This document shows positions 12,901-42,536 of a DNA stretch of 64,000 nt, piece after piece; position 1 is the first letter of the stretch; the number at the start of each line of letters is the position of its first letter. Below the pieces are notes generated by a model that was not told where the DNA came from, did no database searches, and saw nothing but the letters and a program-made list of their open reading frames with translations. The stretch spans positions 19,216,587-19,280,586 of the forward strand of contig CM120648.1 of assembly GCA_051362555.1 (NCBI GenBank), in the 5' to 3' direction. The stretch comes from Lingula anatina (taxonomy: Eukaryota > Animalia > Brachiopoda). The position numbers and the translations under genes are program-made.

Positions 12901-15900
12901 AAGGTGAAAGTGGATCTCATACCTCTGGGGAAGAAAACATGAGTAGTATAAGAATGTTGACGATATGTCGCCGTATGAACAACACCTGACAGATGAAATA
13001 GATTAGATTGGAAGCATGTCTATTAAGATTAAGGTCTAGTCTCTCTCTCTCTTTCTCAAACCCCCCCCCTTGAAGAAGGCACATCAGCTAAAAACTCAAT
13101 CGGGCGCTTGATACCAAATATACTTATTACATGCATTTTCAATCTAATTTATTTATTTTTATACAATATTTATACAATATACTGTGGGATTAATACGATG
13201 ATATATATGAATATGCACGCATTGCAATACATAACATTATGCATTATGCTTAAATCAGTTAGTTTGGACATAGCTTATTGTATTCCTCGCAGTGGCAGAA
13301 AGGGACCATCTAGATGATATTGACAAGGAGCTATTGGAAAAAATTGAGAAAATTGCCCGAGGAGAAGATGTGGAGCCAGAGAAACAGGTCACAATTTGGG
13401 ATTTTGCAGGACAGGATGTCTACTACACCACGCACCAAACGTTCCTCTCAGAGCGGATCATCTACTTGTTGGTATTCCGACTTGACCAGGACCTCGATGA
13501 TAAAATCCGTGTATACAGGGGAGAGAAGACCCTGAAAGGTATTGTTGAGGTTTATGTATATATCTTTACATGTATAAGCTACTCAGGGCCCTCATGTAAA
13601 TAATGGCCTGTCAACTGTGTGTAAATTCTTTATTAAAAGACCCACATTTTTAAATCTCTCTATTGTTCTTAATATATAATATATAATATATATATATATA
13701 TAACATTGAGTTTTTAGTAGTGTTAATTTTAAATGGTTCCGATGAGTGTTTTAGATTTTAATATTGTAGTAATTTTAAGGATTTTAGTTATATTATCCAT
13801 TGTAAGCCGCCCAATAAGAAACATTATTATTATTATTATTATATTAATTGGTGCTATTTTTTAGCAATGCTGAGGAGAAAACACTGATTAATATTCATCT
13901 TTGCAATCACCTCAAGGCTTTATATGTAATTTTCAGAGTTTATTATGTTTTGGTTAAACTCAATCCATATGCACACTATTGGAAAATTGAGGGGAGAAGA
14001 CAAAAATGCCATGCCATACGTATTGATTATTGGAACTCATAAGGACATGTTATGCCCACAGGTGAAAACGCTTTTCTTATCACAATTATTCAATTACTAC
14101 CATACTTATTACTACCACCAGCGTGTACGCTGGCGGTACTCATGGTTTTAGTCCCGGCCCGTCTCGTCCGTCTCCGTCGGCTCCGTAAGCTCCGCCGGCT
14201 CCGCGTTCTGGCGCCGGATACAAGTCACCGTTACGGCTTCTCCTCCTAGACCGCAAGGACCCCTGTCCCTATCTCTTGGATTTAGGTCACATATAACCTC
14301 AACTTGAACCCCCAGGTTTTTTTGTCTCAGTTGGTGCATTGACCTGGGCGTGACGCTCGTTGAAATGCACCCTTGTCAAAATTTTTGAAAATTCAATGCC
14401 AATTATCTACCCTACAGAAGGAATTATGGGAAAATTTTCTATAGACGGCTTTCCAAAAGTCATATGTGTAGATTTCAAATTTGCCCTTGGATTTGACCTT
14501 TGACCTTTATTTCAATGTCAAACGGGCCAAAATTTTCAAAAAAATGAAATTTTTTACGAAAAAAATATTTTTGCACTGTTATTCAGACACTACACAGACT
14601 TAAGCAAGAATTATATTGGAATGTGTTACCCTCTGCAGCCTGGGAGCCACCGGCTGATTTGACGGTTATTTTGGAAAATATTAGATTTGGCCTCGTTTTC
14701 AAAACGTGGAGTGGTAGCCCCAAAAATATTTGGCGGGAGACGAAGGCATGGAGACAGGTAAGTTGTACATGTGTTTGTGGAATGAACAGTAGATTTAAAT
14801 ACTAATGAATTTGACGGGACAATACAGTATATGCATAAGTTACATTTTATACACCGAATAAGTCTTTGTGTATCGATTTCACTGAGTATTCTCTAAAGTT
14901 ACTGGCGATTAGCGAAATGGCTGCACACAAAACGTCATTGTAAACATTGACTTTTGAACTGTGCCAAATGCAGCTTAAGGGTTTTTTTCTTTATCTGTTC
15001 CTGTTTTTTCATAGTTTGGCAATATTTTTTGAACATATCAAATTTTTAAGATGTGCGATGGCCTGTAATTTGTAGAATTTCAACATTTCCAACAAGCTGT
15101 ATATTCACCGTGCCGGGTACCTATCATTTAGTTGATCGAGTGATGGCAGTGGCTTTCTGGTCTCATGCATGGAATGAATGTCACCGTATAAGTGAAATGT
15201 TTGAATCTTGGCTTCTCATGCAATATCTTCGTGTTTTAATGTGAAAAGGATGAAGTGGATTGCGAAATAACATTGTCATCCAACCTGCATACACGTATAC
15301 GTATGTGCATATCGTGGTGTACCAGTACTTGTTTGCAAAGCGGTGGGGAGGGGGGGGGGGATTGGTACCAGTAGTTGTGAAAGATACAGCAGGGGCGTAA
15401 CTAGACCTTTTAAAATTGTACGCACAGAATTTTAAAATTCCCAGGTATAGCTAAATGTAGATCGACTTACGCAAAAGATGAAGGGCAGTTTAAATTATAT
15501 GTGCCAAATATAATAGCTTAGTTTTCACCGTTTATAAAATCATTACTTAAAGTTCAAAATATTCCCTCAATATAATTAAGTTCCAGTAAATTATTTCACC
15601 CAGAACCAACGCTTTTTCCGGGATTGGGGTACAGGCCATACATAATTGCCATCTGTATCTTACTTCAAAATGTCAGGGCCTCAAAGTTTTCCAAAAGCCG
15701 TGAGCGGGGGTGGGGGTGGGGTAAAAATTAATGGAATCTTTTTTTAATAATAAATTTCATTGGGAAAGAGGGTTAAAAATAATTGATACCGATCTCCCGT
15801 CACGCTCTTCCACGAAAGAACGCCCTTGTATGAATATAAAAATTGCCTTCTCGTCTCGCTCGGATCGCGAACGATCTCTGGCTGACGATCTTCTGCGAAC

Positions 15901-18900: not shown

Positions 18901-21900
18901 ATGACATCTTTGGGAAAATTTATGAAATTATATTATTTGTAAAAATTCTGGTCCACTGTGTAAAGGGGAATTGTGTGTTAGATGGTTAAATATATATAAA
19001 TGTGTACCAATCAAGTAAAGTAGCATTGAATTATCACCTACTGGGTAATTAATGTACAATGTAATGTAAAATAACTATTTTGCAATGTACATGTCTCACT
19101 GGTAAAATATTTCAGGCTAGTTGAATTTTATGTAAAATTAAAATAAAATATATAGCAATGTGATTAAATGTAAATTGTCTTTCATTTGTTATTTTTCATA
19201 TTTAATGAAAGGAATACCCTCATCAGTTGGCCTCATGTAATAAAAAGGTTTATCTACAATGAAAAAAATGTTAAAATTCATTTGTATTAGCACCGTGGTA
19301 AGTGCCAAGAAAAAAATTATTTCATTGTCCCCAATACCCAGTTGCTCTATATAAGTAATACTGTGTGAAGGAAAAACTAAAACGAGACTGAAGCCCATGA
19401 GAAAGCACTAAGTCAAAGCGAGGCTTATATGCGGATATCGTAAGTGAGAGTTTTCAGGCTGACATGGCCGTGAATTGATTTGTGCCATTCACAGCTTAAG
19501 GCAAAGTTCTTTACATGCTTACATTGACAGAAAGCTGAATAAATTTTCCACAACTTGTAGTAATTTCAAGTTGTGCGGAGGCCTCTATAGGTACAAAAAT
19601 CAAAATCAAAAACCAACTTCCGTAATAGCTTTAATAAAATTTCGATTTCAAACTCATTTTTCAACATTAAATATGCTGTAGATCAACTTTTGGGTCATCT
19701 CACATTATTCGAAATTTATTTCTCAATATGACAATGTACATATTGTAACCCCAAGTACGTTAATAGCAGAGATAATACACCGTTTATGACACCCTATAAA
19801 TCTCAAAAAATATTGCCCAATTCAAATTCTCAAACTTCCGGTTTGTTTAATAGCCACCTAGCGGCAGACCAGTGGCTCCCGGGCTGTGGGTCATCTTTCA
19901 TCTCCGTGAATTTGGGGTCAATTGGTGCATTTTCATAGGAGTAGCGGCCATAAGATACCGAAACTGAAAACTGTCTCTAATTCGGGAACCGTTAATGTTA
20001 GCGACCCCTTCTTTTTTGCATTTTGTAGAGCATGTAAAGCCCAATACTGTAAGTGGTCTCCATTTTTTTGTATTGCATACGGTTTTTGTGTTATGCTGTA
20101 TTAAAAAGTACTTTGTGGTGGCACATTATTGTAACTCAGAATTGTAACATTTAGTCCCTTATATCTCCAAAACTGGCGGAGATAGGTCAATGGTTATTAT
20201 TTAAGTTGAATAGGAAGTCATTTACTTGCAATCTAGATGTGACCTTGACATTGACCTTTGACCTACTTTTCACAATGAACTGAACTTTGCAAATTTTTGT
20301 TCCCTTTTATCTCCAAAACTGGCAGAGATAGGTCAATAGTTACTATTAAAGTTGAATAGGAAGTCATATACTGGCAATCAAAGTGTGACCTTGAAATTGA
20401 CCTTTGACCTACTTTTCATCATGAATTGAACTTTGCAGATTTCTTTCCCTTTTATCTCCAAAACTGGCAGAGATAGGTCCATAGTTACTATTAAACTTAA
20501 ATAGGAAGTCATATACTGGCAATTTACTGTGACCTTTAAATTGACCTTTGACCTTCCTTTTACTATGAACTGAACTATGCAAACTTTCGTTCATCTATCT
20601 CCAAAACTGACAGAGATAGGTCCATAGTTACTATTGAACTTGAATAGTAAGTAATACACTAGCAATCTGTGACCTTGAAATTGACCTTTGACCCACTTTT
20701 TTATGATGAACTGCTTTTTGCTTGTTTTCTGGCCTTCAAATCTGCAAAATTGGCAAAGAAATGCCCATGGTTGCTATTGAACTTGAATAGAAGTTCATAT
20801 ACTATGATGTTGAAATTGACCCTTGACCTACTTTTTCACCATGAACTGAGCTTTGCATATTTTTTGCATCTGATATCTTTAAAACTAGCAGAGATGTGCC
20901 TATTGTTTCCCCTAGGTTTTCTCTTTTGTCAGCATATATGCACCATTGACAACACATTTCAAGGAAAACCAATAAGCCTTTTGTCTAGAGAATACAGTAG
21001 TGATCAAGGGTAGTAAAATGCAAGTCAATTTGAAAATCTGCTTGATTGTACCATTTTAAATTATATTTTTTTGCATATTTTGAGAACTCTTGTTGATTGC
21101 ATCTTACAGAGCTTGTCAAACACAAGACTGGTGATGGTGTCCCTTTTAGTAGGGGGGGGGGGGGTCCATACGAATGCCCTTACTCCAGCTGGTGGTACAA
21201 TATCCGGAGGCGGTATCGCCTCTCTGATCCTCTAGTTCTAATTTGTATCCCTTCAACCATATCACATTGCAATTCCTGATGAGTGACTTAATTATTTAGA
21301 AACTTTTCACTATGTGACTATTTGTGGATGGCATGATTAAATGTTGGGGGAAAAGGGTGTTCCTTGCCCCCTGTACTCCATCCTAATTTTATAGGTTCAT
21401 TGCAACATACCCCATTTCTCAACTTGAACAAAGTGGACTTTATCATATACACACATACACATACACACACACACACCCCGGTAAATGATTTCTTTCGCAC
21501 TGACAATTTAACATTATTATATGGTAATGAACAACAACTTCAAAATTTTCTAAACTAGTTTTTATTCATAGGGCGACGTTGAAAAGATTTTTGATAAACT
21601 CAAGAAGTGTCTCGACGACAAGCAGGTACTCAAGGACCACGTCTACCAATATTTTGCCGTAAGCAACTTGGCCGAAGATGATGGGGAGTTCGCTGAAATA
21701 AAAAGAGCGATCGAAGATTTGTGCGGTTATAGCAGCAACAGTATTGCTACCGTTCAACATCTTTCAGTGAGTTGGATAAAATTGGAAATGAATTTGGCAG
21801 AGAAGAGTGAAGAAAACCCCATCATAACTATTGAAAAACTGAGGGAAATGGCGCAAAGGGTAGGACTCCCAGATGAAGAATTACAAGAAAAATTCATTCC

Positions 21901-24900
21901 TTACCATCACCGTCAAGGCGACATCCTACACTTCAAAGTTGATGGACTGGAAAATGTCGTCATAATAGATCCACTTTGGTTAGCAGTTGTGTTTTCTGCC
22001 ATCATGACCACGGCCAGCAGTCAACCCGGAGGCAGTCACTTCGATCTCCTAAAAGACGATCTGAAAAGAGGGGTGCTAAAGGAGGAGGTGTTTGATGAAT
22101 ATCTAAAACAAATCAAAATGGCCGAAAAAAAGACCGAAATCATTCAACTTATGCTGCATTTCGACTTGATGTTAGAAATATCCCAATCAGTTGAAAACCC
22201 TCTGCCCGGGTCTGGAAAAAGAAGATTCGTCGTGCCTAGTATGCTGGTATCCAATAACAGTGCAAATAACGCCTTGTCTGAGACGGATCCACAGAAATAT
22301 TTGCTTATTGCATTCCCTCACATTCTGTTTCCTACCGGGTTGTTTCATCGTCTGATCGTCCGTCTTCTTAGGAAGTATAGAGCTCAGGACTATGAACATA
22401 ACATTCCAGTTGTTGGGTTTGACCACGCCTCCTTCCGTATGGTTGACAAACAGTCGGTGCTCCATCTTGCCATTGAAGAAAAGGCCATGAGAATGATGAT
22501 AACAAACGCTACTGGACACAAAACAAAACCTCACATATACTTAAACGCACGGAAAACCGTCGAGGAAGAGCTGTCAACTCTTAGGGAGACGTACTGTCCC
22601 AGGATGCTGTTTGAATTCCGCATTAGGGTAAATAACAAGGGAAAAGATATTGCAATAAAAGCAGAGGACGTCCAGGAAAACGAGATCTGTAGATCTGTAG
22701 AGGGCTCTGAAAATGCAATTGATATGACACCGTATCGCAATTGGTTTTCAGGTAAGCATTAAAATTTTACGTAGTTTTGCTGTGAACAGACATTAAGTTG
22801 CTATATAATTAGGGGTGATATAGTCATTGATATCGGCGATTCCTCAAACTGATGTAAATGCAACTAATAATCTTGGAAGATGTACTAAGATGTAGGTGTA
22901 GGGAATTTATATTTCAAATGTTTGCCAATAAACCAAGCTATATGTAATGCCATTCACGCAAAAAATGCAGAAGTCAATTCAACAATCTATCGGCACTATT
23001 TAACAGCCAAAACCTACTTTAAAGGGATAATAACTCTTCGTATGAAATCTGTATTTCACAATAAAAACATTGTGAGTGACTCATAAAAATATAATATATT
23101 CTGTTTTCCCACAAAAACGGCTGTTATAGCTATTATTCTGATATCTGAGCTTGTCTTTAGACCACGTGACCTCCATTGATGGCTATACTCTGTTAAAATC
23201 TCTTAAGAGATTTTAACAAAAAACCAAACTTTTTAGAAAAAAACCAGGGACTAACTTTGAATGTAAAAATGGATTCATTAACCATTGGTAAGTATGGGAA
23301 AATTGTTGTTTACTCCAGGAAAATTCATTTTTTGGCCGAAACGAAGAGTTATTATCACTTTAACTATCTAAACTTAATTCTACTAAATTAGTTTTTGTCA
23401 TTTTAATCATTCGTCAAAATCTAACAATCAATAAATGATTCAAAAGTCAGTTACTGCAACTCAACAATTAGTCACCGCAACTCAACAATGTATTTTTGCG
23501 TGAATGGCATGAATGCATGGAACGCCATTCACGCAAAAAATGCAGAAGTCAATTCAACAATCTACTGGCACTATTTAACAGCCAAAACCTACTTAAACTA
23601 TCTAAACTTAATTCTACTAAATTAGTTGTGGTCATTTTAATCGTTCGTCAAAATCTAACATTCAATAAACGATTCAAAAGTCAGTTACCGCAACTCAACA
23701 ATGCATTTTTTGCGTGAATGGCGCGATGCATGGTGCGCCATTCACGCAAAAAATGCAGACGTCAACTCAACAATCAGTTACAGCAACTCAACAATCAGTT
23801 GTCGCAAATGGTCATTCGCGGACTTAACACCAGATGGCGCGCGCGCACCGTCAGCGATCTGAAACGTCCTTGACCTTTTTGCATGTTTTCAATTCCGCAT
23901 ATTATGCGAGTACATGTGGTTCATCATGTTCGTATTGTCATGATATAGTTAAGTATATATAGTAGGATTGCGTTCAATCACAACATACTGAAATTAGATA
24001 TGGCAATGAACCACATGTACAGCCCGGGAGCCACCGGCTCATATGACGGTTATTTCAGAGAATATTAGATTTGGCCTCGTTTTCAAAACTTGATGCGGCG
24101 GCTTTACCCAATTTGGCGGGAGGAGCAGGCATAGAGACAGATAAGATGAACAGACGTTTATATGCTGATATGTTGATAATTTTACTAATGCACTTGACAG
24201 AACGATAAAGTATATTCTCAAGCTATATTTTTTATAACAAAGTAGTGTTCAAGTATCGGTTTCACTGAATCTTTTATCAAGTTACTAGCGTGTTCCAAAA
24301 TGGCGGCACACAAAACCGAAATGTAAACACGTTCTTTTGAATTGTGCCAAATGCAGATGAAGGTGATTTTCCTTTGTCTGTTCAGTTTTTTTTTATAGTG
24401 TGACATTTGTTTTTGAATATGTTAAAATTTTAGGAAGGAACCTAACCTTCCTAAAATTTTAACATATTCAAAAACAAATGTCACACTATAAAAAACACAT
24501 TTTTACTCCTTTGTCAGGAGACAAATGTATGATATCAATATGAGTGAATTTTTATGTACAGACACAGATGTGTCTGTACATATTGCCATCACCTGCGTCT
24601 GTCGTCGCCGTCGCCGATGCCGATGCCGATGCCGGATGCCGATGCCGATGCCGTCGCCGTGCACTTTCCTTGTAAACACGATAAGTGGAGGGCAGTTTTA
24701 CTTTTTGTCTTAATATTTACAGAGCTGATGAATATTCATAAAACGCAGGTCAAGTTCGAAAATCAGCATGATCGGGCCATTATTGTAGAAGTTATGCTGT
24801 TTTTTCACTTTTCAGCATATATGCAACCCTGTAAACACATTTTAAGGAAAACCATTAGACCTTTTGTCATGAAACTCACAGAAGTAATCAATCTTATTTA

Positions 24901-28221: not shown

Positions 28222-28259
<38 letters not shown>

Positions 28260-31200
28260 ATATGCAGTTACAAAAGTTTTCCTGTAAATTACTTTTTAAA
28301 CCTTTTTAATATTTAATCTAATATTTTTCTAGGCTTGAAGAACATGAATGGGACCAGGACAAATGCGTTTTCCAATTCCTTGGCCTGCAGTTTTTATGAC
28401 AGAATCACCTATCATTTCCAAATACTGTGTGGCAGTGAGCACCATCACAACCTCTGACATTCTTTTAAGGACTGATAAATATTTTGTGCTGCGCTAGCTG
28501 TTGCTTATAATAATATTTTTTGATCATCAGTATTACTACATTTGTCATATATTTTACAGTATATTTGAACCATGCACCATAGGTAACATATGCGAAGTTT
28601 AGCTTTTGCATAAATGACATGCCTTGTAGACAGAAACTTCTACTTATAAAAATAAATTCAAAGTATGGATTGGTACAGGACTAACTGGGCATCAGTGAAA
28701 ACAACTGCTGACCCAAGGTAAATTTATAAAATAATATTATTATTAATATTGATCCTGTTTTTAAAAGGAGTGGTGTGTTCATTGGTTAACTGTATGTACT
28801 GATTAAGTAGTGTAAAATAATCGCCATATTGAAGTGTTGCTAAAATAAAAAATAATTTTTTTTGCCACAAATATACAATGTGTATTACATGTATGAAAAT
28901 AAAATAAAGAAAATTGAATTGATGTTTCTTTTTTTCTTTTTTTTTCATAAAAAGGGACTCTTATCAGTTGGACTAAATAAATAAATGCTTATTTACAAAG
29001 AAAAAATATGAAATGTTTATTTTCCTCTATTTATCCTGTGCAAGCTTCATTTCACTATATAGACAATAATGAGCGGTGGAAAAAAACGAGGTCAGAATAC
29101 CTACAGGATGTAATGAGTCAAAACGAGGCTGGTATACGGTTGTTGCAAGGAAGACATTTTTTGCATACACGGGTGTGAATTGATTTGTGCCATTCCTGGA
29201 TGAAGGTAAAGTTCCGTACATGCTTACATTTACAGAAAGCTGAATAAATTTGCCACAACTTACTGGTAATTTAAAATTGGAACCTGTTCTCTAAGAATGC
29301 AAGCATTTGAGTCAAAGTTGAACTTCCGCTGTAGCTTTAGTAAAATATTTGGTTTCAAACTCGCTTTTCTACACAAAAAAGGGTTTAAATCAACTCGAGG
29401 AGCTTCTGACATGATTTGCAATTTACTTTTTAAAATGACAGTGTACATAACAAAACTTTTATACCCTTAATAGCCGAGATATTCCACCGTTTCTGACACC
29501 CTATAAATCTCAAAAAATTTCACCCAATTCAAATTCTTCAACTTCCAGTTTGGTTAAAAGCCACCTAGCGGCAGACCGGTGGCTCCCAGGCTGTGTAGTT
29601 CCTACTCGAATAATATGCGGAATAGCACAGGTCTCAAACTACTGCGCATGCGCGAAAAGTACGCTGTTTGAAATAAACAAATGCATTTATTTTCTCTTCA
29701 CAAATAGGGTAATTTCTTTCGCATTTATAGTGTTATATGTGGCACCAAGGGGATTTTCCACCCCTCCCCCACTCTTGATTAATAAAATTATCCATCGGGA
29801 GGAATGAAAATTATATTGCAAAATACATTATAAAGCGTAGGAAGGTTAATTGCAGATAATACTGTGAGGATATTCTAGGGGGTCATGCCGATACTCCCCC
29901 GCACCGTAACTCCCCCGTACTAATACTCCCCCGCACCGATACTTCCCCTTAGTAAATTTTTGCATTATGCACATCGATACGACCTCACACCGATTGATCC
30001 CCGCATCGATAAATCCCCTCTAAAATTGCCGTTATACGCACACCGTTACTCCCCCGCAACGATACTCCCCGCATTATTACTCCCCCTATGCAATTTCCAC
30101 GAAACTGAGGGTCTGGGTAATGGAGAGTCATCCCTTCATTTAATTATAGGCCTACAGGTTAGGGTCAATCGACGTAAGTGGGTCAAAATCTAGGGCGGGG
30201 CTGAATTACCTATGCAAATTGATGGGAACCGGACTGTCTATCATGGGAGAGTATGTCACCTTGCATCAATTTTTTTCACATATAGATTTGAAAAATTGGT
30301 CAACGCCTTGGAAGCACGGCCTGCATTGTATAAGAAATACTTTTTTCAAATGGAAAAACGCTTTGGATATTGGTGAGATGAGTAAAAAAAAAATGGCCAC
30401 AGGGAGATCCTTGGTGATGTTGTTTTTATGCTATTGCGCAGTGCATACAATAATTGCTTACAATTGAACATCGAAGCCGTACAAAAGAAGCCGCAAAATT
30501 CCTAAAAAATCTTGGGCGACAACACATTAGTCTCATTCACAACCGGCCGCATGGACTCAACGACCCGTTTGAGTCCAAATTTTGCGGAGAATCTCACGTG
30601 CCACGCAAGTCCTGTATGCGAAATTATGAGTTCGCATGCACGTATGTAAGCACGTACGGAGGATACTAAACATTTCCAATAGATGCTACAAATAATCTTT
30701 GTTACGCTTTATTCTACAAATAATCTCAAGTTACGCTTGCGGCCTCGCTGTTTAAATAACCTTTAAACAGCGGGGCCGCAAGCGTAACTTGCTCCCTCCG
30801 CAAGGAGTTTGCGAGGAGTTTGCAAGTGAGACTTGCGTGGTCCAAGACGCACGTCGTAAGCAATGAGAGAGAAAGTGCCCTTTGCGTGTTGAGTACGGCG
30901 CACGCCCTCACATCTATGATGAAGTAAGTCGAAAACACGGCGGGACTGCGAGAATAATAGGTGTGCTCACGACGCATGCTCGTTGTCCAACAATTTTCAG
31001 AAATTTTGAATTTTGCTCAATTCAGATTCTAATGTGCCTCCAAAAGACAAGGGAAAGAAGTTTAAGAGCAGAAAAGAAGGTTGGAGGAAGATAACAGAAA
31101 ACGAAGCGCTTTAGCACTGCTTTTTTATTATTTAATAATTTAACAAAATCATCGTTGCCTGAAGAAAAGACATAGCTGCGTCATCTTAGATTAAAACTAA

Positions 31201-34200
31201 CGTTGCCTTAACTAAATAAATAAAAGGGCGTATAATATAAATACGGTAACTACAGTAGGAGAACAATATTTATTTTGCACAAACATTTCTCAAATTTACA
31301 AGGCATAGCTATAGGCCCAGGGCTCGACAGTAACGCTGGCCCGCTGGCCCGGGGCCACTGAAAACCGGTTACGGGCCAGTAAATCACATGTGTTACTGGC
31401 CCGAAGGGCAAGTGGGGTTTAATACGCCGAATAAACGTAATATTTGACGATACCTCGCTTCTCGGTAAAATCCCAAGTCCTAAAGTGCTAGCGATCGGAC
31501 CTGCTTTTGCGTAAATAGCTGTGCCCCCCTTTCAATTGGCGCAAATCTGTTATTTGCAAAAACTATTTTGAGAGGGGGGGACAGTGAGGAACAGAAGAGC
31601 AGCTGACGTGTTTTGCATAATTTAATGCATGTGACTTGTTATAGCCAATCAGCTATTCGATTTTTGACCTCGCTGAGTACAATGCTAAAAGTTTGTGTGT
31701 CACTAACCACGCGCGCACTACGAGATCACGCAAGCTGGAAGCCATTATTGTCAAACATGAGACAAGCTAAATTGACTAATTTTTGGCCTAAAGTTTCAAC
31801 GGACCCGAACTTGGAGCCCGTGCCGGAAAGTAGTGGGGTTACTTCAACCGAATTATCCACAGGCTTCAGTTATGAACAAAAACGCAAACGTGAATTCCAA
31901 ACGCAATGGATAAAAGAATTCCCCGGAATTAATTGGACTGAAGAAAAAGGAATGACATGCACCACGTGCGTGGAGCATAGCAGTTGCAGAGCGAGCGTGT
32001 TTGTAACCGGGTGTACAAACTTCCGGAAGCATTCAATAAGATGTCACTTTGAGTCTTCTCAACACCTAGATGCAGAGAGGGTGAAGGCATGTGCACAGAG
32101 GGGCCATATAGGACCCTTAGACAGGATCGTGAGAAAAATCGGAGAAAAAAACAAACAGTTACTCACATATCTTTTCAACACTGCGTATTGTGTTATTCAC
32201 GAGGAAATGGCTTTTACCACATACCCAGTTTTATTAAAGCTTCAAATAAAGAATGGATCGGACCTACGCCGTTGCCAAAGCTATGCCAGTGACAAGGCCT
32301 GCGCCAGGTTAGCGTACCTTTATGTATTAAATTATAAATACACAAAGAATCCGGTTCAAACTGCCTGTTGTTAATGATATTTTCAGTGAGGTAACTGACA
32401 ACATTTTTGACAAGATTTAACCTTTCGTGGGTAACAAATGCAGTTACAATTCAATGTCATTGTCAATTTTTGTAATCTCTACTGTTTTGACGTTACTCAT
32501 TAGGCTTTATTTATTTATTTATTTATTTATTTATTGTAGTGGATACATTAGTAAATTTAGTTACAGTTTTAGTAACAACTTTGTTCTTTATATCCAATAA
32601 GGTTTACCAAGTACATTGTGCAAGGGCTAAGAGAGCCATTCATTGAGGACATACGTGATACCGATGTGCTTCGCATAACTTTTGATGGGGCAACTGATTG
32701 CAGCGTTTCGGAAACTGAAATCGTGTATTGCAAGTATATGCAGCAACAAGCATAATGTGTATTATCTGAAAATATCACTTACATGAAATATAAAAGAAAA
32801 ACCTTGAGTGAAACAATCATTCTTGAATATTTAATTAGTAATGCTGATATTGATTTAAACATATGTTTTAGATGTGTAAAAAGTGGAGAACCAAAAGAAG
32901 TTTTAGTTGCCTTGGAGGACCTGGAACATGCACACGCTGATGGTGTTATGAGTGCCATTTCAAGGGGTATGAATAGAATTGCAGGTAATGGTTTATAAAA
33001 ATTACTGGAACGAGTGTAAATTTTAGAATGTCTTTATTCTCTGGCCAACAGATATGTTATTTTAAATGCAATAAAATTTTCGTAACAAGTCATTATAGAG
33101 GTTTTAAGCACTGGTTGCTTATAATGCACATAAAGGTTATTTCAAACGAACTGTTATGAATTTGTACTGATTCCATGTCTGTTCTCTCTTTCTTTCTATT
33201 AGATTTTTTTAGTTATTTTCATTGCATTGATTTATGTTCAATATTTGCTTTTTAAACTGTAGTAAATAAAAATTAATTTTTTTTATAAGGTGCAGACTGG
33301 CTCACCAAAGTTGTAGGAGCTGGATGTGATGGAGCATCAGTAAACTTAGGACCAAACAACAGTGTGGGTACTCGATTGAAAGATGGAAGGCCGTATATAA
33401 CGTTGGTTCATTGTGTTGCACACCGTCTGGAACTGGCAGTGGTCAGTGCTATTAAGGAAAATGCTTATATGGCAACAGTTAATGATATTTTGAAGAAAAT
33501 ACACAAACATTATCACTATTCCCCCAAGGCACTGAGGGACTTACAAGCTATAGCCGTCTTCATGGAAGAAAAGGTTATCAAGCCAACTCGTCTGCAAGGA
33601 ACCAGATGGGTCCCCCATGTTTTAAAGGCCTCAAAAGTCCTGATTTCAAGTTACCAAGTTATTACTACACACTTTGAGCATGTGGTGGAATCTCCACCTG
33701 GATCCCATTCCATAGAGGTGAAAGGAAGGGCAACATTTCTGGCCAAAAATCTGAAAGATTTTAGAGTGTTGAGATTTCTCTTTCACATTAGAGATATATT
33801 AGAAGTGGTATCTAATCTATCACTTGCAATGCAGTGCAGCAAAGCTACATGTGTTGATTTCCTGGACAGCTATGAAACTGCTCTCATGCTACTTACGGAG
33901 TTGCAATATACCCCTGGTATAGAATACAGCAGTTTCTTGGCTGAGGTCAATTCCCCTCCATATGGGATGTTTAGGGGGGTGCAGCTGGAGCATATTGAGC
34001 AAAATCCTGTGAGATACCAAGACCTTGCTGATGTTTGTGTTCTTGTACAAAATAAAGTCATCACCAGATTAGAAAACGAGCAGGATCCTTCCATGGCTGT
34101 GTTGAATGCAGGGCGTGTCTTTGACACTAAGGAGTGGCCTTTGGATCGCCAGAACTTAGCAGGATATGGGAATGACAGTGTAGGGTATCTTGTGAATCAT

Positions 34201-37200
34201 TTCAGGCCTGTTCTTCAGAATCTTGGAGTGTATGATTTTCCCAGTATACGTAATGAGTGGGCTCGCATGAAGGCCATATTGGGAGTGAGACTGCAGAGAA
34301 ATCCAAGACCGACTGTGCAAGAAATATTCATCACGCATGCAGATGATTTAAAGCATATTCTTAAACTTGTTGAAATAGTATTGGCAATCCCTGTTTCCAG
34401 TGCTAACTGTGAACGTGGATTCTCTGCACTGAAGAGAATCAAAAGTGATTGGAGGGCATCTCTTGCTACCGTACAAACCAATGATTTGCTTTTTGCTTCA
34501 TTGGAAGGCCCTGACCTTGAGTCATTTTCTGCAGAAAGAGCCTTGCATCTCTGGTGGACAGAAGCTCAGAGACAGCGGCGCCCCCAGTTTCAGGAAGCAC
34601 CCGTTGATGGAGATGCAGATGAACTGTTCAATTTCCTCTTGAACCACAATGATTAAAGGACAACTCAGTGGGTTAGATTAATGTATAGAAGCAGGTTCTA
34701 TGTAAAACTTTGATCAGATTTGTGTTTTGGGAGATTGTTTATTATTATATGAATAAGTCTGGGTCACAAAAGTCCTGTTAAGACAACTAGAATAAAGAAT
34801 TAGAAAACGAAAACTATTTATCATGATTTCGGAGCACAGCCAGAAGTACTTCAGGCTCAAGGTCACGACCTCGATTTTCCCATGCTTACGACCAATCACA
34901 GCAGGCTTCAGTCAGAATGAGATAGACGTCACGACTACACAGCGAAACTTGTCAGACATGTAAGTGCCGCCTGTCCATCTTTTCGGTACATGTACCGATC
35001 AAAAACAGAAAAAGTAAAGCCCAAAAACGCTCTTATACACGTAACCAACTTTGTATGAGCACAAATATTGCCATTTATTGTGAACGGGATAATATGATAA
35101 TGAGACACACTTGAGACCTGTGAAGCGCATACTCACGTGTCGAGGAGTAGTTTTGCCATTGCCTCGTATGTGAGTCCTAACTCAGCTTTAAGTGTCCTCC
35201 ACCGCCCCACCTCCCTCCCAACATACACAGTCTGACTGCTTCTTCGTCTGTCTCTAATTTCTTTCGTATCTTTCGAACAGGAGTGGCTATTTTCTTTCGC
35301 CCCCTTTTGTCGCTCTCCTCTTCAGACTTGACGCGCGTCTGAGCCATGTTTGCTGTTTTGGCGCCAAATAGTAACATCCGGGTCTCAGCCGTAGTACTTC
35401 ATTCATAGTAAACCGCGAGACTTAGCGAGAAATTGCGCGTTCTGAAGCCGTACTGTGAGGTGGTAGCTGAGTATTTAAGACGAGTCGTCTTTTATTATTT
35501 AATGGAACTTAAAAACGGTATTAGGTAGCTTCATTTTCTGAATGGTTTTGGATAGGATATACCTTGGTCATTATGGGGAAATTGGTGAGTTTTCCAGGAA
35601 AATTCATTTTCGTGCTATTTTAAGGGTTTAACGCGCTGAGACTGTCTTTAAAAACTAATTTAATAAATAGGTTATGTGTTTAAAAGGATCAAACAATGTT
35701 TCCAAAAGTTTATTCTTAAATTGCCTGTAATAAATGAATAGTAAGCAAATAATAGTTGCGACTTCTGATGTCATGTTGGGCAAGTGGAAAGCTGAGTCGG
35801 GCCAGTGAGTTTCATGCCTCACTGGTCCAATGGGCCAGAAGAAAAAAAAGTTAGTGTCAAGCCCTGCAGGCCTACGTACTGTTAAGCTGCACGCAAAGTC
35901 TGAGATCGACTTTGAGCAACGCCCTTTTTTTCCCCAATATATTTCGAATAAATTGTGTCAATCCCCTATGTGTCCCAAGAGGGTGGTGCATCTTGAAAAA
36001 AAAAAATAGCATAATAGAAAGGGTTTTGAATCACGATTTGTGTTTACAAAGCCCAGGGAATTTTTTGCTTTGGGGGAGTAGTGTTTTTGCGGAGTATTGG
36101 TAGGCGGGAGCATCAGTGGGGGAAGTATCGATGCGAGGATGTAAAGAAGCTGGGGAGTATTGGTGCGGTGATGTAAAGAAGCGCGGGAGTATCGATGCGG
36201 GGACGTATAGGCATTCTAGTCAGGGGCGAACTCGGCCAATATAAAAATTTTAACTTCGTCTTACGATTTTGGAGCGCCTGTTCTAATTTTTAATAGCGAG
36301 GCAATGGAACCAAACAAAACGAATCTAAAAAGAATTGATATTTTTTAATAGAGGTTATAGCCGGGCGTATATCAAAAGGCGGCTCGTTTATTATTGTGAT
36401 ATGTAATAATAATTTATGTAAAAGATACGATATAATAGGTTCTTGTCGATTAGCTTTATTGATTTTTATGTACAGACACAGATGTGTCTGTACATATTGC
36501 CATCACCTGCGTCTGTCGTCGCTGTCGCCGTCGCCGTCGCCGATGCCGATGCCGTCGCCGGCGCCGTGCACTTTCCTTGTTAACACAATAAGTGGATGGC
36601 AGTTTTACTTTTTGGTTTTATATTTACAGAGCTGATGAATATTCATAAAACGCAGGTCAAGTTCGAAAATCAGCATGATCGGGCCATTATTGTAGAAGTT
36701 ATGCTGTTTTTTCACTTTTCAGCATATATGCAACCCTGTTAACGCATTTTAAGGAAAACCGATAGGCCTGTTGTCATGAAACTCACAGGAAAAATCGATC
36801 TTACTAAAATGCAGGTCAAGTTCGAAAATAGGCATGATCGGGCCACTATTTTAGTAGTTATGCTGTTTTTTCACTTTTTAGCATATATGCAACACTGTTA
36901 ACACAATATATGAAAAACAGAGTGGCCAATTGTCATTAAACTCATAGGAGTGGCCAATCTTACTAAAATGCAGGTTGAGTTTGAAAATTAGCATAATTGG
37001 GTCATTGTTTCAGAAGTTATGCTGTTTTTTCACATTTCCTCAAATTCAATTCTTAGGCAAATTAACAGTCTTATTATTTAACTAATAAGATACATAAAAG
37101 TGTTTATATGACATTTCCTGCATCTTTACAACATTGTAAGTTGATTATGTAAAAATTATGGTAAACTTGTTACCGTATATTGTGTAATAAAGAGTCAAAA

Positions 37201-40200
37201 ATGGAAATAAACTCATATCATTGCAGTTTGTCAGATTCAATCATTCAGTATGTTCAGAATCTCAGAATGGAAGAAATTGGGCATTTAACACTATTCTATT
37301 GATATTTTTCTCATCTCATCAATTTTCTTAGTTGATCATATAAAAATGGCAGTAAACTGTTAATTTTGTTTTATGTAAAAAAATTGTTAAAGATGGGGGG
37401 GAAAACCCATTTCAGAACAGTGCTGTCTTGTTTCACATTTCCTCAGATTCAATTCTTAGGCATGTTAACAGGCTCATTATTGAACTTATAAGATATGTAA
37501 AAGTGTTTGTTTGACATTTCCTGCATCTTTATAACATTATTAGTTGATTTTTAAAAAAATGATGTTAAACTTGTTATCGTGTATTATGTAAAAAAGTGTC
37601 AAAAATGGAAATAAACTCATCATTGCAGTTTGTCAGATTCAATCATTCAATATGTTCAGAATCTCAGAATGGAAGAAATTGGACATTTAACACTGTTCTA
37701 TTGATATTTTTCACATCTCATCAATTTTCGATGTTGATCATATAAAAATGGCAGTAAAATGTTAATTTTGTTTTATGTTAAAAAAGTGTTAAAAAGGGAA
37801 ATAAACCATGTTGAAACGGTACTGTCTTGTTTACATTTTGGCATTTTTATGTACAGACAGAGATGTGTCTGTACATATTGCCATCACCTGCTTCTGTCGT
37901 GGCCGGTGTCACCGTCGTCGTCGGTGTCACCGTCGTCGCCGTGCACTTTCCTTGTAAACATGATAAGTGGAAGGCAGTTTTACTTTCTGGCTTTATATTT
38001 ACAGAGCTGATGAATATTCATAAAACACAGGTCAAGTTTGAAAATCAGCATGATTGGGCCATTATTGTAGAAGTTATGCTGTTTTTTTTTCACTTTTCAG
38101 CATATATGCAACACTTTAAACACATTTCAAGGAAAACCGATAGGCCTGTTGTCATGAAACTCACAGGAAAAATCGATCTTACTAAAACACAGGTCAAGTT
38201 CAAAAATCGGCATGCAGCCTGAGTTGGAAGAGCAGTCTAATTGGATTCTTTTTCTGGAAGTTATTCATTTTCAAAGTGTGAACTTGAACTCCCATGGGCC
38301 TGAAGATTTATGCTTGTTACACATTTTACTTACATTGGAATTACCTGTTGAGCATAATTAAAATTTGATGTTGAATTTGCAGTTTAACATAATGTACTTT
38401 TGCATCAGAATTGACAGTACCCTATTTTGTTTTTTCCTGCTTTTTGTCTGTACATTTGACAGCTTTGCTGCCTTGTTTAAGTATTTGGAGACTAAAAACA
38501 CAATTTAAGCTGAATGGTTTCAAATCGAGGCACCACGTATTTTAATACTGTTAAAACCACGGAAAAGGTCAAGGACGTTTCAGATCGCTGACGGTGCGCG
38601 CGCGCCATCTGGTGTTAAGTCCGCGAATGACCGTTTGCGACAACTGATTGTTGAGTTGCTGTAACTGATTGTTGAGTTGCGATAAGTGATTGTTGAGTTG
38701 CAGTAACTGACTTGAATCGTTAATGATTGTTAGATTTTGACGAATGATTAAAATGACCAAAACTAATTTAGTAGAATTAAGTTAAGATAGTTAAAGTAGG
38801 TTTTGGCTGTTAAATAGTGCCGATAGATTGTTGAATTGACGTTTGCATTTTTTGCGTGAATGGCGTTCCATAAATCTAAATGCAACCATATAAATATTAA
38901 AATAATATAGGCTTAACTTAGTAAATTCTTAGTCAAATGTATTTTCATAATCCCCGAAAAATGATATTTTACACATCTTATCAGTATTTTTCTGTACTTT
39001 ATAACCATTGGTAATTTTCGCCCATCGACTTCGTTAAAACAATATGAATATTCTCCACAACACCATGCAGTTTATATTTTAATCAGGCTAACAATACGAG
39101 TTTTACATGGGCATCAAAGTCTTGGTGAGGGTAAGACTATTGCCATTCTGTGTTGCGAAAATTTTTCATATAAACTGTTGCATATTAGATTTATTACCCA
39201 GCCGTGTACAGTGCTAGAATTGTTTTAACTTTTGATTTAAAAACAAATGCCCAAGCATATTTGGAAAGCGTTTAATGACAAAAATTAATATCAGGCTATC
39301 CAACTACCAGACTCGGCACATAAGGATCCTTGAATTAACCGTTATATCGGACCACACTACCCGTTTTCAAGGTGTGTGTTAGGTCGCATTTCGGAGTATC
39401 ATGCCCCAGAACAAATTTTGTAGCACGACTGCGGGCTCATCCACGCTCGGCTGAACAACCTTAAACTGTACTCTAGCTTTAGAGTACTCTATTTTATTGT
39501 CTCTTTGGGGGTATATGGGGACTTTACGACATTCGGTTTAAATGTTTTAACCACTTTTGATAGGGATTTTTGCATTGTATTAGATTAATGTGGCGGTCTA
39601 AGGTTCATCTAGGTGGCTTTCAAATTTATGCACCCGGTTTTAAAATCAAATAGCAATTTTACGACAATCGTTTACTATCCAATCAAGGTGACAGTCGAGC
39701 GTGGGCTCATCCTGTCGGTGTTCCGACTGATACTCCGAAATGCGATCTGACACACACCTTGAAAACGGGTTTTGCAGTCCGATATACCGGTTAATTCAGG
39801 ATCCTTAGGTGCCGAGTCTGGTAGTTGGGTAGGCCTGAATATGCCCTGGTCGTATTTTGACATTTTACCTGCGGTGCGGCAGGTATACATGTGCAGCGGA
39901 TTACCTTTTGCTCACAACACATATCCATTAATAAGTTTCTTCATACTTAAATTACACGTATATTATTACAATTGCTAATTGTGGTTCATCATGCGCACAT
40001 TCTTAAAATCCTTATTTTTACAGATAGTGCACAGGCAGTACAAACAAGTGAACCAGGTAATTTTGTATTTGGTAGTGCTTGGGTTAGGCTTAGAGGTGCG
40101 TTCATTATTCTTATTTTTACTTTTATTTATTTTTTTTTACAAATCTTCAATATAAAGAAATAGCATAATGTTATTAGCATGTACCCCCTGTTCATATGAC

Positions 40201-42536
40201 AGCACATTTCACTGACTACATATTTCTCCCATAATGCAGGGTGATTGCCGTATATTTTACACACAAAAACACGCACGCATGCACGCACACACACACACAC
40301 TAGTATACTACTCACTCTCTTTCCCTATAAAATTATTGTACAAAAAGCATTGATCATTATCAGAATTTTCTATTTGTAGGTGCGAGTGGCCCGAATGTGT
40401 CATTGATCCATAAACAGAGGTTTACAAGGCTGCATTATCTCGTTATTGAACTTGGAACGAAAGCCATTAAAACCTTCTTCCTCAAGGATGTTGTTAGGCC
40501 TGGCATCACTGACGGTGGGGACATCAGTGATAACAATGCAGTGGTTCAGTTTTTAGGCAAGAAAGGCGTGAGAAAGGAACTTGAGAAACTCAAGAAAACA
40601 AAGGCCATATTCGACTCTCAGTGGAATCTGTTGTATCCTGCCTCTGGTCATACAGATGTGGAAACGTTTGACATTACATTGCTTGTGTTATTGATAAGAA
40701 ATCTTCACCCAGACAAAGCCAACCTAAAATGGCCCAAAGCAAATGCCACGACAAGTACCCCTCCACAAACAACACAGGGTTTCATCGAACACATCCAACG
40801 GCTTAAAAATGTCAGGAATTTTTTACAGCATTCCGCCAAATATGGGATCCAAGACATGGAGAAATTCTGCACAAATTGGGAAATCGCCGGTGCTTCTGTT
40901 CTAGCACTTGGTGCAGATCCAAAGGAAGTGGAAAAGATACAGGAATTCAACTTTAGCTTACAGGAGATAAATACAATAGTGTGTGAAATACGCAGCTGGG
41001 CAGAAGATAACAAACGGCATTTCGACAGCAGATTTGACAGGCTTGAATTAGTAATTAAAAATATTTATTTCCCTCTGTATGTGCCGTTCTCTGTGCCGTC
41101 GTCATTGCGCTTGTCATAAATTGAAAGAGGCAGATTTTTTTTTTTTTTTTTTTTTTTGGGGGGGGGGGCGGGGGTCCTGATTTCTGAAAAAAATTGCGCT
41201 TACATTTCCCTCTTGAAATTAGAATGTTGACTTGCTGAATTACAGTTCTGAATAGAACCGAATGACACCGTGCACCCTCTAAGTATCAAAATTGTTTGGG
41301 GCCTAAAGCAGGCCTTCGAAACCCCACGGCAGGGTGGGGTGGCTTGGCATCTGTGCCCCTCCTCTTCAAATAATCCTGGATCCGTCCCTGAATTACCGTA
41401 AGTGAAAGGGTTAGTTGATGTTCGTCTTCAGTTGTACGTGGCATATGTGGATGGTCCAATGCCAGATTGAACCTTCACATTTTTACCTAGTGATATTTTT
41501 AAAACACAATTAAAGCCTACATATAGTTTACATTTACACCGGCCCGTGCGCTGAAATTGTCCATACTTTTTTTTTTTTTTTTTTTTTTTTTGAAATCGTC
41601 CGGAGCTAGGGTCTACGGCAAGTATGTCTACATTTAAATGGCCTAAAATCAGTACGATTTCGCACGGTCATCGTCTACCTCCTCTCAGACGCCGTATGAT
41701 AAGGGTATTACGGGCAGTATACGTGCACCGTAGGGGAAGGGGGGTTAGTCCACCCTCGGGGCAAATTTGCACACACACACCCATATCTCGAAAGTGAAAA
41801 GTTGAATTCCGTCCTCCGCTATATTACACGTGGAAGTGCGCTATCAAAACAAAAATCGTGGGCTGTAAGACTACGTAGTGTTCTATTCCTTGTCAGTCAA
41901 AACTCAGTTTTATTACCTGGTAAAAAAAATCAGACTCTATTTACTGTCTTTTTTTTTTGTCGACAGAGTATTGATTTACATTAAGTTTGCATTAAGTTCT
42001 ATTGAGGCAAGTCAGCTACTTTTGCACGGGGCTTAGCTAGTTCACTCCTGGGCGGACTTGCCTCATTACATAAAACCTCTTGTTAAACATATTTTCTAAT
42101 GAAAGTTTATGTTTTTTTTAATGTTTTATTTTTTAACAGGTATTCTAAGAGCTTTGTCGTATTGACATGGTGACATTACAGTGGCGGATTTAGACGTGGG
42201 GTCAGGGGTTCCTCCCCCACCTCTTCGATTTCTGGTCCCAGCTTGAATTAGTATTTTGACTAGCTGAATCATATTTCTAAACCGCACCAAATTGCACCGT
42301 TTGCCCTCTAAAGTACCAACAATTTTCGGACCCCAAACCCCATGCCAGGTGGGGTGGAAGTGGGGGGGAATCAGGGCTTCAGTTTTGCATCAGCGCCCCC
42401 CCCCCCCCCCTTCAAATAATCCTGGATCCGCCCCTGTATTATATGTGTTATTACCAAACTAAATTGTTGATTCAAAGACATTGTATTTTATTTTCAGATG
42501 GTGGAGGAACGTATAAGAAAAAAACCTAAAGTATGA
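6881..42536 (+). CDS. ROCO-family gene (Roc GTPase-COR-DZIP3-like HEPN), 5'-partial; join(6881-6931,12892-12942,13293-13538,13937-14061,21572-22751,40024-40056,40380-41050,42498-42536)
   Basis: All junctions are GT/AG with consistent phases (1,1,1,0,1,1,0), giving one open frame of ~798 aa to TGA 42534-42536. Roc G3 WDFAGQ, G4 GTHKD, G5-like FAVSN; COR motifs (W..LE, IIDPLWL, FVVPSML, FPTGLFHRL); HEPN FDITLL..RN and RNFLQH. The G1/P-loop is not in the window. Confidence 0.75.
7100..8690 (+). mobile_element. Helentron-like non-autonomous element family A (fragments)
   Basis: Palindrome tgtacagacacagatgtgtctgtaca plus a (CGCCGT)n-like microsatellite; shared with 24551, 36464 and 50990. Confidence 0.7.
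8722..12326 (+). mobile_element. HINE family B copy with higher-order internal duplications, inserted at TT inside a smaller HINE (8690-12527)
   Basis: Same 5' palindrome; 3' ctggtggtacaa...gaggcggtatcgcctc hairpin...ctagtt; the host element resumes at 12326 and ends like 1-190. Confidence 0.7.
12892..12942 (+). CDS. Putative 51-nt phase 1-1 exon (VPFKGESGSHTSGEENM); alternative donor after 12903
   Basis: Acceptor ttattgtacag and frame compatible with both neighbours, but the donor gtagta is weak. Confidence 0.4.
   Translation, partial: SLSKVKVDLIPLGKKT
13293..13538 (+). CDS. Roc GTPase exon (G3 motif)
   Basis: [30 protein letters not shown], the hallmark Roc switch II; cgcag acceptor, G|gtattg donor. 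Confidence 0.92.
13937..14061 (+). CDS. Roc GTPase exon (G4 motif)
   Basis: EFIMFWLNSIH...PYVLIIGTHKD; ttttcag acceptor, CAG|gtgaaa donor. Confidence 0.9.
15390..17891. mobile_element. hAT-like non-autonomous element, 5-bp flanking duplication TACAG
   Basis: TIR caggggcgtaactag / ctagttacgcccatg. Confidence 0.75.
16760..17215. mobile_element. hAT-like MITE, 5-bp flanking duplication CATGG
   Basis: TIR cagggccgtagcct / aggctacggccctg with G/C-run subterminal motifs. Confidence 0.85.
21572..22751 (+). CDS. Roc C-terminus plus COR-A/COR-B exon
   Basis: 1180-nt open exon: FAVSN, SWIKLE, HRQGDILHF, VIIDPLWL, FVVPSML, PTGLFHRLIVRL; donor G|gtaagc. Confidence 0.9.
23023..23359. mobile_element. 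Kolobok-like MITE with TTAA target-site duplication
   Basis: TIR agggataataactcttcgt / acgaagagttattatcact; TTAA on both sides; empty site cctactttaactatc visible (rc) at ~38790. Confidence 0.85.
24020..29593 (+). mobile_element. Non-autonomous TIR DNA transposon (CAGCC...GGCTG ends), copy 2
   Basis: TIR cagcccgggagccaccgg / ccggtggctcccaggctg; TGTA on both flanks; collinear with 14636-19886. Confidence 0.8.
24551..27045 (+). mobile_element. HINE family A full-length copy inserted in a T-run
   Basis: 5' palindrome and microsatellite; 3' ctgtacatttgacagctttgctgccttgtt; uninterrupted empty site in the duplicate at 27630-27645. Confidence 0.8.
31757..34656 (+). CDS. hAT transposase (ZNF862/TTF-zinc-finger type), ~720 aa; join(31757-32307,32602-32733,32872-32984,33290-34656)
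   Basis: Phases 2,2,1 give 721 codons; CxxC..H..H zinc finger, DGATD, CDGAS, HCVAHRLEL, GTRW, SSANCERGFS. Confidence 0.88.
34782..35647. mobile_element. Possible Kolobok-like non-autonomous element nested in the hAT 3' region
   Basis: TTAA at both ends, short agaca/tgtct termini, shares ggaaaattcattt with 23023-23359. Confidence 0.35.
36464..38478 (+). mobile_element. HINE family A copy (with internal second head at 37848)
   Basis: Same palindromic head and the gacagctttgctgccttgtt tail. Confidence 0.75.
39292..39837. mobile_element. MITE with ~110-140-bp TIRs, 5-bp flanking duplication AATAT
   Basis: caggctatccaactaccagactcggcac... / ...gtgccgagtctggtagttgggtaggcctg. Confidence 0.85.
40024..40056 (+). 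CDS. 33-nt phase 1-1 linker microexon (DSAQAVQTSEP)
   Basis: ttatttttacag acceptor, CAG|gtaatt donor; preserves the frame between the COR and HEPN exons. Confidence 0.6.
40380..41050 (+). CDS. DZIP3/hRUL138-like HEPN domain exon
   Basis: RLHYLVIELGTKAIK, QWNLLYP, FDITLLVLLIRNL, IQRLKNVRNFLQH (Rx4H at 40814-40831), F...W..I; tttgtag acceptor. Confidence 0.85.
42179..42436. mobile_element. hAT-like MITE (related decayed copy at ~41127-41390)
   Basis: cagtggcggatttag / ctggatccgcccctg; flanks catta/tatta. Confidence 0.75.
42498..42536 (+). CDS. Putative terminal exon MVEERIRKKPKV*
   Basis: ttttattttcag acceptor, phase 0 matches the TTA|gtaatt donor, AATAAA at ~42546. Confidence 0.55.
   Translation: MVEERIRKKPKV

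Follow-up and report, generated by a model that had tools for sequence, protein, structure and literature searches.

A Roc-COR GTPase gene with a C-terminal DZIP3-type HEPN domain in Lingula anatina, a candidate sensor-switch-effector immune protein

Introduction

In bacteria, Kaur et al. (2021) described LRR-AP-GTPase-COR proteins whose C-terminal effectors number at least 24, and entries in their supplement list the architecture LRR+AP-GTPase+COR+HEPN for two bacterial proteins; the searched part of supplement file 4 contains no COR+HEPN string (PMC8195603). Here we analyse a 64-kb, repeat-rich stretch of animal DNA from Lingula anatina (the window), in which we find a gene encoding a Roc GTPase domain, a COR domain and a HEPN domain of the DZIP3-like kind, in that order. 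Like the AP-GTPase-COR counter-invaders, this gene would place Roc-COR between a sensor made of repeats and a C-terminal effector that varies, with HEPN among the effectors. In both systems a genome holds several paralogues with different effectors, which in Lingula are HEPN, caspase or RHIM after the same COR end, and in both the function is predicted only. The Lingula gene differs in being animal and split by introns, in its DZIP3-type HEPN and in the membrane tail of its paralogues. An N-terminal LRR was not found; the near-identical RefSeq model P0171 has an NHL propeller instead, and we therefore liken the gene to the AP-GTPase-COR system rather than file it there. The Lingula architecture is a variant of the predicted bacterial system, not an unprecedented one.

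With the ROCO family (LRRK1/2, DAPK1, C. tepidum Roco) the gene shares the Roc-COR tandem, its COR matching 3dpt/3dpu and LRRK1/2. It departs from that family in having no kinase, HEPN as effector and a long low-complexity Roc insert made of micro-exons; the missing kinase domain sets it apart from the LRRK/DAPK ROCO kinases. Many invertebrate ROCO proteins lack a kinase, and most of these have yet to be characterised. Invertebrate HEPN_DZIP3-NACHT/STAND receptors, whose expansions are treated in PMC10236652, PMC9334734 and PMC3710099, resemble it (in corals and Aplysia) in the HEPN family used, the NTPase switch and the lineage-specific expansions. In contrast to these, the Lingula gene has a Ras-like GTPase with COR as its switch where they have a STAND ATPase, and its HEPN is C-terminal. 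RNase L and IRE1 (KEN) and Csm6/AbiF are HEPN-family ribonucleases (RNases) with the site between two copies, and AbiF and Csm6 take the top ranks among structures compared with the Lingula domain, at scores short of the bar for helical folds. Their regulator is a kinase or pseudokinase, CARF or RNA, whereas the candidate regulator in Lingula is Roc-COR.

PMC9334734 and PMC10236652 note invertebrate ROCO-TIR and HEPN-NACHT proteins, with PMC7159879 cited beside them; brown-algal ROCO exon shuffling appears in PMC11378527, and the tripartite idea is repeated in a 2026 preprint (10.64898/2026.10.19.760177). Full-text literature searches, with most subscription journals outside their coverage, returned no report of an animal Roc-COR-HEPN protein, and the animal family is real and apparently undescribed. 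Our proposal, for and against which we see the case as evenly poised, is that the Lingula-family gene encodes a sensor-switch-effector immune protein whose RNase is turned on when COR pairs two copies.

Results

Seven exons join Roc, COR and HEPN in one frame

The gene comprises the following exons and two large introns.

6881-6931, + strand: micro-exon of 51 nucleotides (nt), phase 1/1, in the low-complexity Roc insert between G2 and G3; strong splice sites
13293-13538, + strand: Roc exon with G3 (WDFAGQ); Pfam Roc 3e-8
13937-14061, + strand: Roc exon with G4 (GTHKD), in frame; 95% identity to P0004 residues 355-396
14110-21229, no strand assigned: intron sequence of ~7.1 kb, not in the locus of RefSeq model P0171; a putative insertion
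21572-22751, + strand: end of Roc and complete COR (COR-A helical, COR-B alpha/beta); Pfam COR-A 7.6e-22
22752-40023, no strand assigned: intron of 17.3 kb, phase 1, repeat-laden, between COR exon and linker exon
40024-40056, + strand: linker exon of 33 nt, phase 1/1; joint 40056^40380 is GT..AG, with 8 reads of RNA run X1
40380-41050, + strand: HEPN exon, DZIP3-like; Pfam HEPN_DZIP3 1.4e-20, motif RNFLQH at 40814-40831
42498-42536, + strand: terminal exon, basic tail ending RIRKKPKV-stop; AATAAA at 42546

All seven exons have AG/GT ends and together form one open frame of 780 codons plus the stop. The initial annotation of this DNA had proposed that Roc runs in frame into COR, a 33-nt linker and HEPN across a phase-1 intron of 17 kb, and the exon chain bears this out. 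The micro-exon at 6881-6931 is an addition to the exons listed there, and its peptide recurs in P0001 and P0171. Between COR and HEPN lies a stretch of ~20 low-complexity residues. The intron read-through of P0171 matches the window on both sides of the ~7.1-kb segment, from 14062 and at 21240-21296.

RNA reads support the fusion in the family

Four RNA runs, picked by species label, were aligned to 39960-41190 and yielded 32, 25, 15 and 286 reads, almost all from the sense strand. Reads of X1-X3 were mostly 95-99% like the window, and those of X6 mostly 90-95%, with a junction sequence that fits P0009/P0158. The HEPN exon had sense-strand coverage in four of the four runs. Its splice to the linker (40056^40380) is the one carried by the eight X1 reads, and its exit at 41050 leads into an exon of the 42498 type, similar but not identical, in four reads of X1 and three of X2. 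In X6, a splice from the COR end of a paralogue to the linker exon is carried by 37 reads.

Because the reads across the COR-linker splice come only from the paralogue, the fusion is directly read for the family, for which we regard it as practically certain, and deduced for the window copy, for which it is quite probable. Of the RNA path 22751^40024^40380 foreseen at the outset, the second joint was recovered and the first was not among the joins listed for the runs most like the window copy. A separate gene for the HEPN exon, with the fusion a prediction artefact, is a very remote prospect. The 17-kb gap speaks for it, as do several RefSeq models of the family that are split or mis-merged (P0004, P0171, P0158). 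The 37 paralogue reads refute it at the family level, and several independent fused models in two phyla, together with Atlas clusters containing both families, argue the same way.

In a further 31 reads of X6, the 33-nt linker exon at 40024-40056 directly follows a micro-exon of the 6881-6931 type. These joins reflect either a paralogue with a similar Roc-insert micro-exon or an isoform that skips G3-G4-COR and connects the N-terminus to HEPN.

Domain identities of Roc, COR and HEPN

Pfam was run on six open reading frames (ORFs), and Roc, COR-A and HEPN_DZIP3 each scored over the curated cut-off, a profile check having been suggested for the spliced protein (E-values as listed above). The short ORF of the G4 exon had no Pfam match among the six, and two intron ORFs matched hAT-type families. 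Roc and COR are adjacent in one chain, as in ROCO proteins; G3 and G4 lie inside the window, and the position of G1/G2 is beyond it.

The COR exon model had a predicted local distance difference test score (pLDDT) of 86.7, with an alpha/beta C-terminal half. Its best Foldseek matches were C. tepidum Roc-COR/COR (3dpt_B, E 5.8e-14, template modelling score 0.77 by target, 338 aligned columns), and LRRK1/2 structures were also matched. Pfam COR-B itself found no match in the COR exon. The fit of the model to C. tepidum COR and to LRRK1/2 therefore indicates that both COR halves are present, including the C-terminal dimerising half.

HEPN_DZIP3 scored 73.9 bits against a curated cut-off of 27. 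The motif RNFLQH, reported earlier as an intact R-N-x3-H at 40814-40831, lies exactly there; it is R-x4-H, fits the HEPN Rx4-6H pattern and has the polar N after R. For KEN/PrrC, PMC3710099 assigns catalysis to R, the next polar residue and H. Of 48,161 chains compared with the HEPN model (pLDDT 83.4), four of the top five structural matches were HEPN proteins. AbiF aligned over 149 residues (Z 6.9, root-mean-square deviation (rmsd) 5.1) and Csm6 over 117 (Z 6.8, rmsd 3.5), three Csm6 entries giving Z 5.8-6.8; all of these scores fall short of what the tool asks of helical folds. PMC12165695 likens the DZIP3 HEPN to AbiD/F and Swt1 and states that non-Cas13 HEPN proteins typically homodimerise. 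A phmmer search of the HEPN against the PDB gave seven weak unrelated matches and no solved relative by sequence. Predicting a HEPN homodimer (205 residues, two copies, alignment unused) scored 0.00 in both runs, which counts neither for nor against pairing.

That no kinase follows COR, as first noted, was confirmed: none was found there, the gene ends at 42536, and tblastn of 175 proteins (one with precomputed kinase families) placed one of 396 matches outside the listed exons, an intron read-through. The N-terminus of P0171 likewise has no kinase domain.

The N-terminus is probably an NHL propeller

P0171 (LOC106159696) carries an NHL propeller, G1 (GPYGVGKT) and G2. The two Roc exons of the window gene (13293-13538 and 13937-14061) are identical to it at 123 of 124 positions, and the P0171 gene model ends by reading through into the intron after the G4 exon. 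P0171 and the COR-end/HEPN fragment P0158 (LOC106159697) have consecutive locus numbers, each on a 45,860-base contig. Given the near-identical Roc exons, the matching intron and the next locus P0158, the full protein is likely NHL-Roc-COR-HEPN, and it is highly probable that the N-terminal NHL and G1/G2 belong to the window gene.

Most Lingula RefSeq models begin inside the Roc insert and hence have no G1; G1-G4 are kept wherever the N-terminus is modelled. A family-wide loss of G1 was rejected as the default, P0171 having G1 GPYGVGKT. We also rejected an N-terminal caspase, present in the old model P0004, since this piece is identical to the C-terminal caspase of P0170 at 105 of 129 positions and is best read as the end of a tandem neighbour. 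P0003, with the accession next to P0001, is a caspase fragment with the catalytic motif QAD rather than QAC, probably an inactive C-terminal effector of a tandem neighbour.

Lingula paralogues carry different effectors after a common COR end

Searching longer proteins with the HEPN exon left 2 out of 3,614 candidates, each a RefSeq model of Lingula anatina in which Roc and COR accompany HEPN, and the COR exon gave 5 of 4,288, all from Lingula. C-terminal HEPN occurs in P0001, P0002/P0005 and P0156, all RefSeq models that fuse COR to HEPN, and in the fragments P0009, P0157 and P0158; P0009/P0158 fuse a COR end to HEPN. P0006 and P0170 end in a caspase with intact QAC, P0007 ends in a weak RHIM match (E 0.007), and P0008 has HEPN at its N-terminus. 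The paralogues align to a common COR end (WFS) and diverge right after it into HEPN, caspase or RHIM, a pattern from which we infer a shared phase-1 intron at the divergence point. Gene models are partly faulty, P0004 having joined a neighbour's caspase and P0171 and P0158 being split, and a few fragments could represent different haplotypes of a single locus, as P0009 and P0158 agree at all of 235 residues.

Compared with these models, the gene in the window has a mosaic make-up: the 5' part of its COR is 94.5% identical to P0156, the 3' part 93.8% to P0001, and its HEPN 77-79% to all anchored paralogues. The immune-type context assumed at first is supported by the sensor-switch-effector layout and by the caspase and RHIM in sister genes, and we find an immune or cell-death role reasonably likely.

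The window copy has exchanged a membrane anchor for a basic tail

A hydrophobic C-terminal segment closes five Lingula HEPN models, their 19-residue hydropathy peaking at 2.3-2.9; P0002, at 0.67, has no such segment. Most Lingula HEPN paralogues thus appear to end in a membrane anchor, and the window copy in a basic tail. A remnant of the anchor is found in the window.

41077-41121, + strand: remnant of the transmembrane anchor, out of frame and now intronic; tblastn match of P0004 residues 1032-1046

The remnant lies in frame 2 behind a stop, and depth in X1-X3 is nil beyond 41051. Ahead of the anchor codons the window has 14 bases more than P0001/P0158 and 11 more than P0156; X6 reads omit 6+8 and 2 bases there, three reads each. 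The new terminal exon with AATAAA at 42546 was used in two runs. The basic tail resembles a nuclear-localisation signal and might possibly act as one, and we take the tail-anchored paralogues to resemble IRE1 in its membrane setting.

Relatives beyond Lingula and the origin of the fusion

A HMMER search with P0001 gave 4,423 representatives at E<=0.001. Among the best 150 of these 4,423, a local HEPN profile placed HEPN after Roc in nine, before it in four and, by the motif rule, left four unplaced. All but one of the nine belong to unionid mussels, namely Sinanodonta and Potamilus. A profile search (15 matches among 7,999 scored) added two more, bringing the unionid Roc-COR-HEPN proteins to ten, of which nine have an intact G1 and the tenth is a partial model. 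The architecture search across proteomes thus found Roc-COR-HEPN in Lingula paralogues and unionid mussels, and with two bacterial proteins in the 2021 supplement the uniqueness initially entertained falls away. NHL was matched in P0026 and weakly in P0166, and proteins with the HEPN at the N-terminus occur in Nematostella, Mytilus and Mercenaria.

Pfam was applied to 51 of 147 new representatives and selected others, with up to five families per protein listed; among the 51 relatives were at least 20 with Death, 3 caspase, 3 TIR, 2 DED, 1 GT4 and 6 HEPN. One of the nearer relatives, P0012 from Owenia fusiformis, has the unusual layout of a death switch in which a single chain combines Bcl-2, Roc-COR and caspase. 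The ESM Atlas holds mollusc-dominated clusters of 55, 82 and 103 members with COR-A and HEPN_DZIP3, the share with COR-A being 13%, 35% and 96%, respectively.

Roc-COR trees were built from 137 rows and then from a 32-row subset chosen after the first tree, with isoforms and near-duplicates dropped (LG+G4 without a mixture model, quick search; the branch to the Lingula group is long). The Lingula and unionid groups are separate on these trees, and a single origin of their C-terminal HEPN fusions was rejected by the approximately unbiased (AU) test on Roc-COR (log-likelihood difference 57, p=0.0003). On a weakly resolved HEPN tree of 22 domains the unionid HEPNs form two groups. HEPN was likely acquired repeatedly, as far as these trees indicate; an ancient fusion followed by frequent swaps is the less likely course.

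A proposed Roc-COR switch and its alternatives

According to PMC6337361, C. tepidum Roco is mainly a monomer with GTP and a dimer when nucleotide-free, with GDP intermediate; the same source assigns dimerisation to the C-terminal COR half. By analogy, the GTP-bound Lingula protein would be a monomer with its RNase off. A ligand on the NHL propeller, or hydrolysis or loss of GTP, would favour the COR dimer, and this would pair two HEPNs into a two-HEPN active site. Given this behaviour of C. tepidum Roco, the direction of gating probably differs from a simple 'GTP-on' reading. Paralogues would act at the membrane through their tail anchor, and the window copy would be soluble. We judge the predicted RNase activity of the HEPN likely, and its gating by Roc-COR, argued by analogy, a tentative idea falling slightly short of an even chance.

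Several observations weigh against this proposal. G1/G2 lie beyond the window and are absent from most Lingula RefSeq models (P0001, P0002, P0006, P0007, P0156). The structural Z scores of the HEPN are only 5.8-6.9, under the bar for helical folds, a Foldseek search of the PDB with the HEPN model returned nothing at E<=0.001, and literature searches turned up no biochemical data on a DZIP3-type HEPN. HEPN is also N-terminal to Roc in P0008, P0095, P0096, P0051 and P0045, so that this group does not require it to sit beside COR. In incomplete lists of base differences in the HEPN exon, 24 of 34 and 4 of 6 are non-synonymous, against 0.78 expected at random, and purifying selection therefore leaves no clear sign there.

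The RNA of the window copy adds to these points, and contains an alternative exon.

29179-29205, + strand: 3' end of an alternative, intron-derived exon; repeat sequence, splicing to 40024 in three X1 reads, with no 5' end seen

Three X1 reads join 29205^40024, the HEPN frame meeting a stop shortly upstream of the join, and there is no COR-linker join among the matches listed for X1 or among the rows listed for the runs most like the window copy. The exon end matches at 25 of 25 positions in one place in the window; a copy of the repeat lies at 19411-19888. No X1 read extends past 22551 in the COR exon, against a depth of ~12 at the 5' end of the HEPN exon in the same run, the former counted with a 92% likeness cut-off and the latter with a lower one. 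At 92% likeness, reads of X1, X4, X7 and X5 on 22551-42550 passed its ends in no case for X1 and twice for X4; RNA there is dominated by intron repeats, and the 15 of 253 joints listed include no gene joint. These data bear on the possibility that the family is real and the window copy is decaying or mostly unproductive, its transcripts diverted by the repeat-filled intron and its HEPN exon read mainly from the intron-derived exon, which could not yield the fusion. The 29205^40024 reads, the lack of a listed COR join in X1-X3 and of X1 reads across 22551, the anchor lost through a length gain of 11-14 nt against the paralogues, and the large insertions in two introns are all in keeping with it. 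We nevertheless consider it rather improbable: all exons are open with canonical splice sites and intact motifs, the new terminal exon has a poly(A) signal and is used in two runs, and reads are few, 15-32 per run in X1-X3.

In an unlikely alternative, the HEPN is an active RNase and Roc-COR a scaffold, or an intramolecular signaller as in DAPK1, with activation by clustering through the sensor, crowding at the membrane or proteolysis in place of a COR dimer under nucleotide control. HEPN on either side of Roc-COR among relatives and the low-complexity COR-HEPN linker of ~20 residues would suit such a scaffold, the paralogues' membrane anchor could itself concentrate proteins, and PMC6337361 presents the ROCO mechanism as a matter of debate. 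It fits less well with the retention of G1-G4 wherever the N-terminus is modelled and with a complete COR-B. Caspase, HEPN and TIR are proximity-activated effector types, and their swapping also argues against a mere scaffold.

That the HEPN binds RNA or nucleotides without cutting, making the protein a ROCO adaptor, is quite improbable. It would agree with the lack of a solved relative by sequence and with a HEPN survey that calls the DZIP3 motif 'mostly conserved' only (PMC3710099). Against it, each of the 22 ROCO-linked HEPN domains compared preserves R-N-x3-4-H, including the R, polar N and H whose counterparts are needed for catalysis in KEN/PrrC (PMC3710099), although the mussel rows are ~20% identical to the window HEPN.

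Should the gated RNase be real, it would extend the sensor-NTPase-effector immune layout predicted in bacteria to animals, with a GTPase switch. An effector needing exactly two copies would test the debated ROCO monomer-dimer switching by a simple RNase read-out, bearing on LRRK2, and would supply the first biochemical test of a DZIP3-type HEPN, none having been found in the literature searches. This significance is tempered by an architecture already catalogued in bacteria, by many unnamed models in mollusc databases and by an RNase activity that is predicted. The most far-reaching version, which we put forward as doubtful speculation, is that brachiopods and freshwater mussels independently built a cell-autonomous antiviral RNase out of an NHL sensor, an LRRK2-type Roc-COR switch and HEPN, which is off as a GTP monomer and fires once a bound ligand or the loss of GTP allows COR to dimerise. 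Such an enzyme would parallel RNase L and IRE1 but sense GTP. It would come in forms anchored to membranes and in soluble, possibly nuclear, forms, its killing modules (RNase, caspase, RHIM) being exchanged as exons, and the ROCO monomer-dimer cycle could be followed directly through its enzymatic activity.

Mobile elements and neighbouring genes

Within the 17.3-kb intron, outer inverted repeats lie at 22936-23879 and 38563-38877, and hAT-type transposase ORFs at 31607-34656 (+ strand; zf-C17orf113 3.5e-9, hAT dimerisation 2.8e-7). The transposase has almost no RNA depth and sits in a 15-kb stretch flanked by inverted repeats. Two near-perfect palindromes of 50-53 bp with 7-nt spacers, at 24389-24498 and 27470-27582, are copies of each other ~3 kb apart.

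Elsewhere in the window, long tandem arrays with a unit of ~100-150 bases (by eye) occupy ~4750-6250 and 9700-12000 and occur near 20150-20900. On the other strand, a neighbouring gene contributes an RNB exoribonuclease exon (1.1e-15) at 50541-50930 (-), flanked by short repeats. A short-chain dehydrogenase exon (adh_short 9.3e-7) lies at 54418-54720 (-), and an integrase core (rve, 3.4e-14) at 56322-56930 (-) adjoins ORFs at 55247-56260 and is likely the remnant of a long terminal repeat (LTR) retroelement. A DDE transposase fragment (DDE_3 2.8e-5, below the curated cut-off) is found at 63488-63790 (+).

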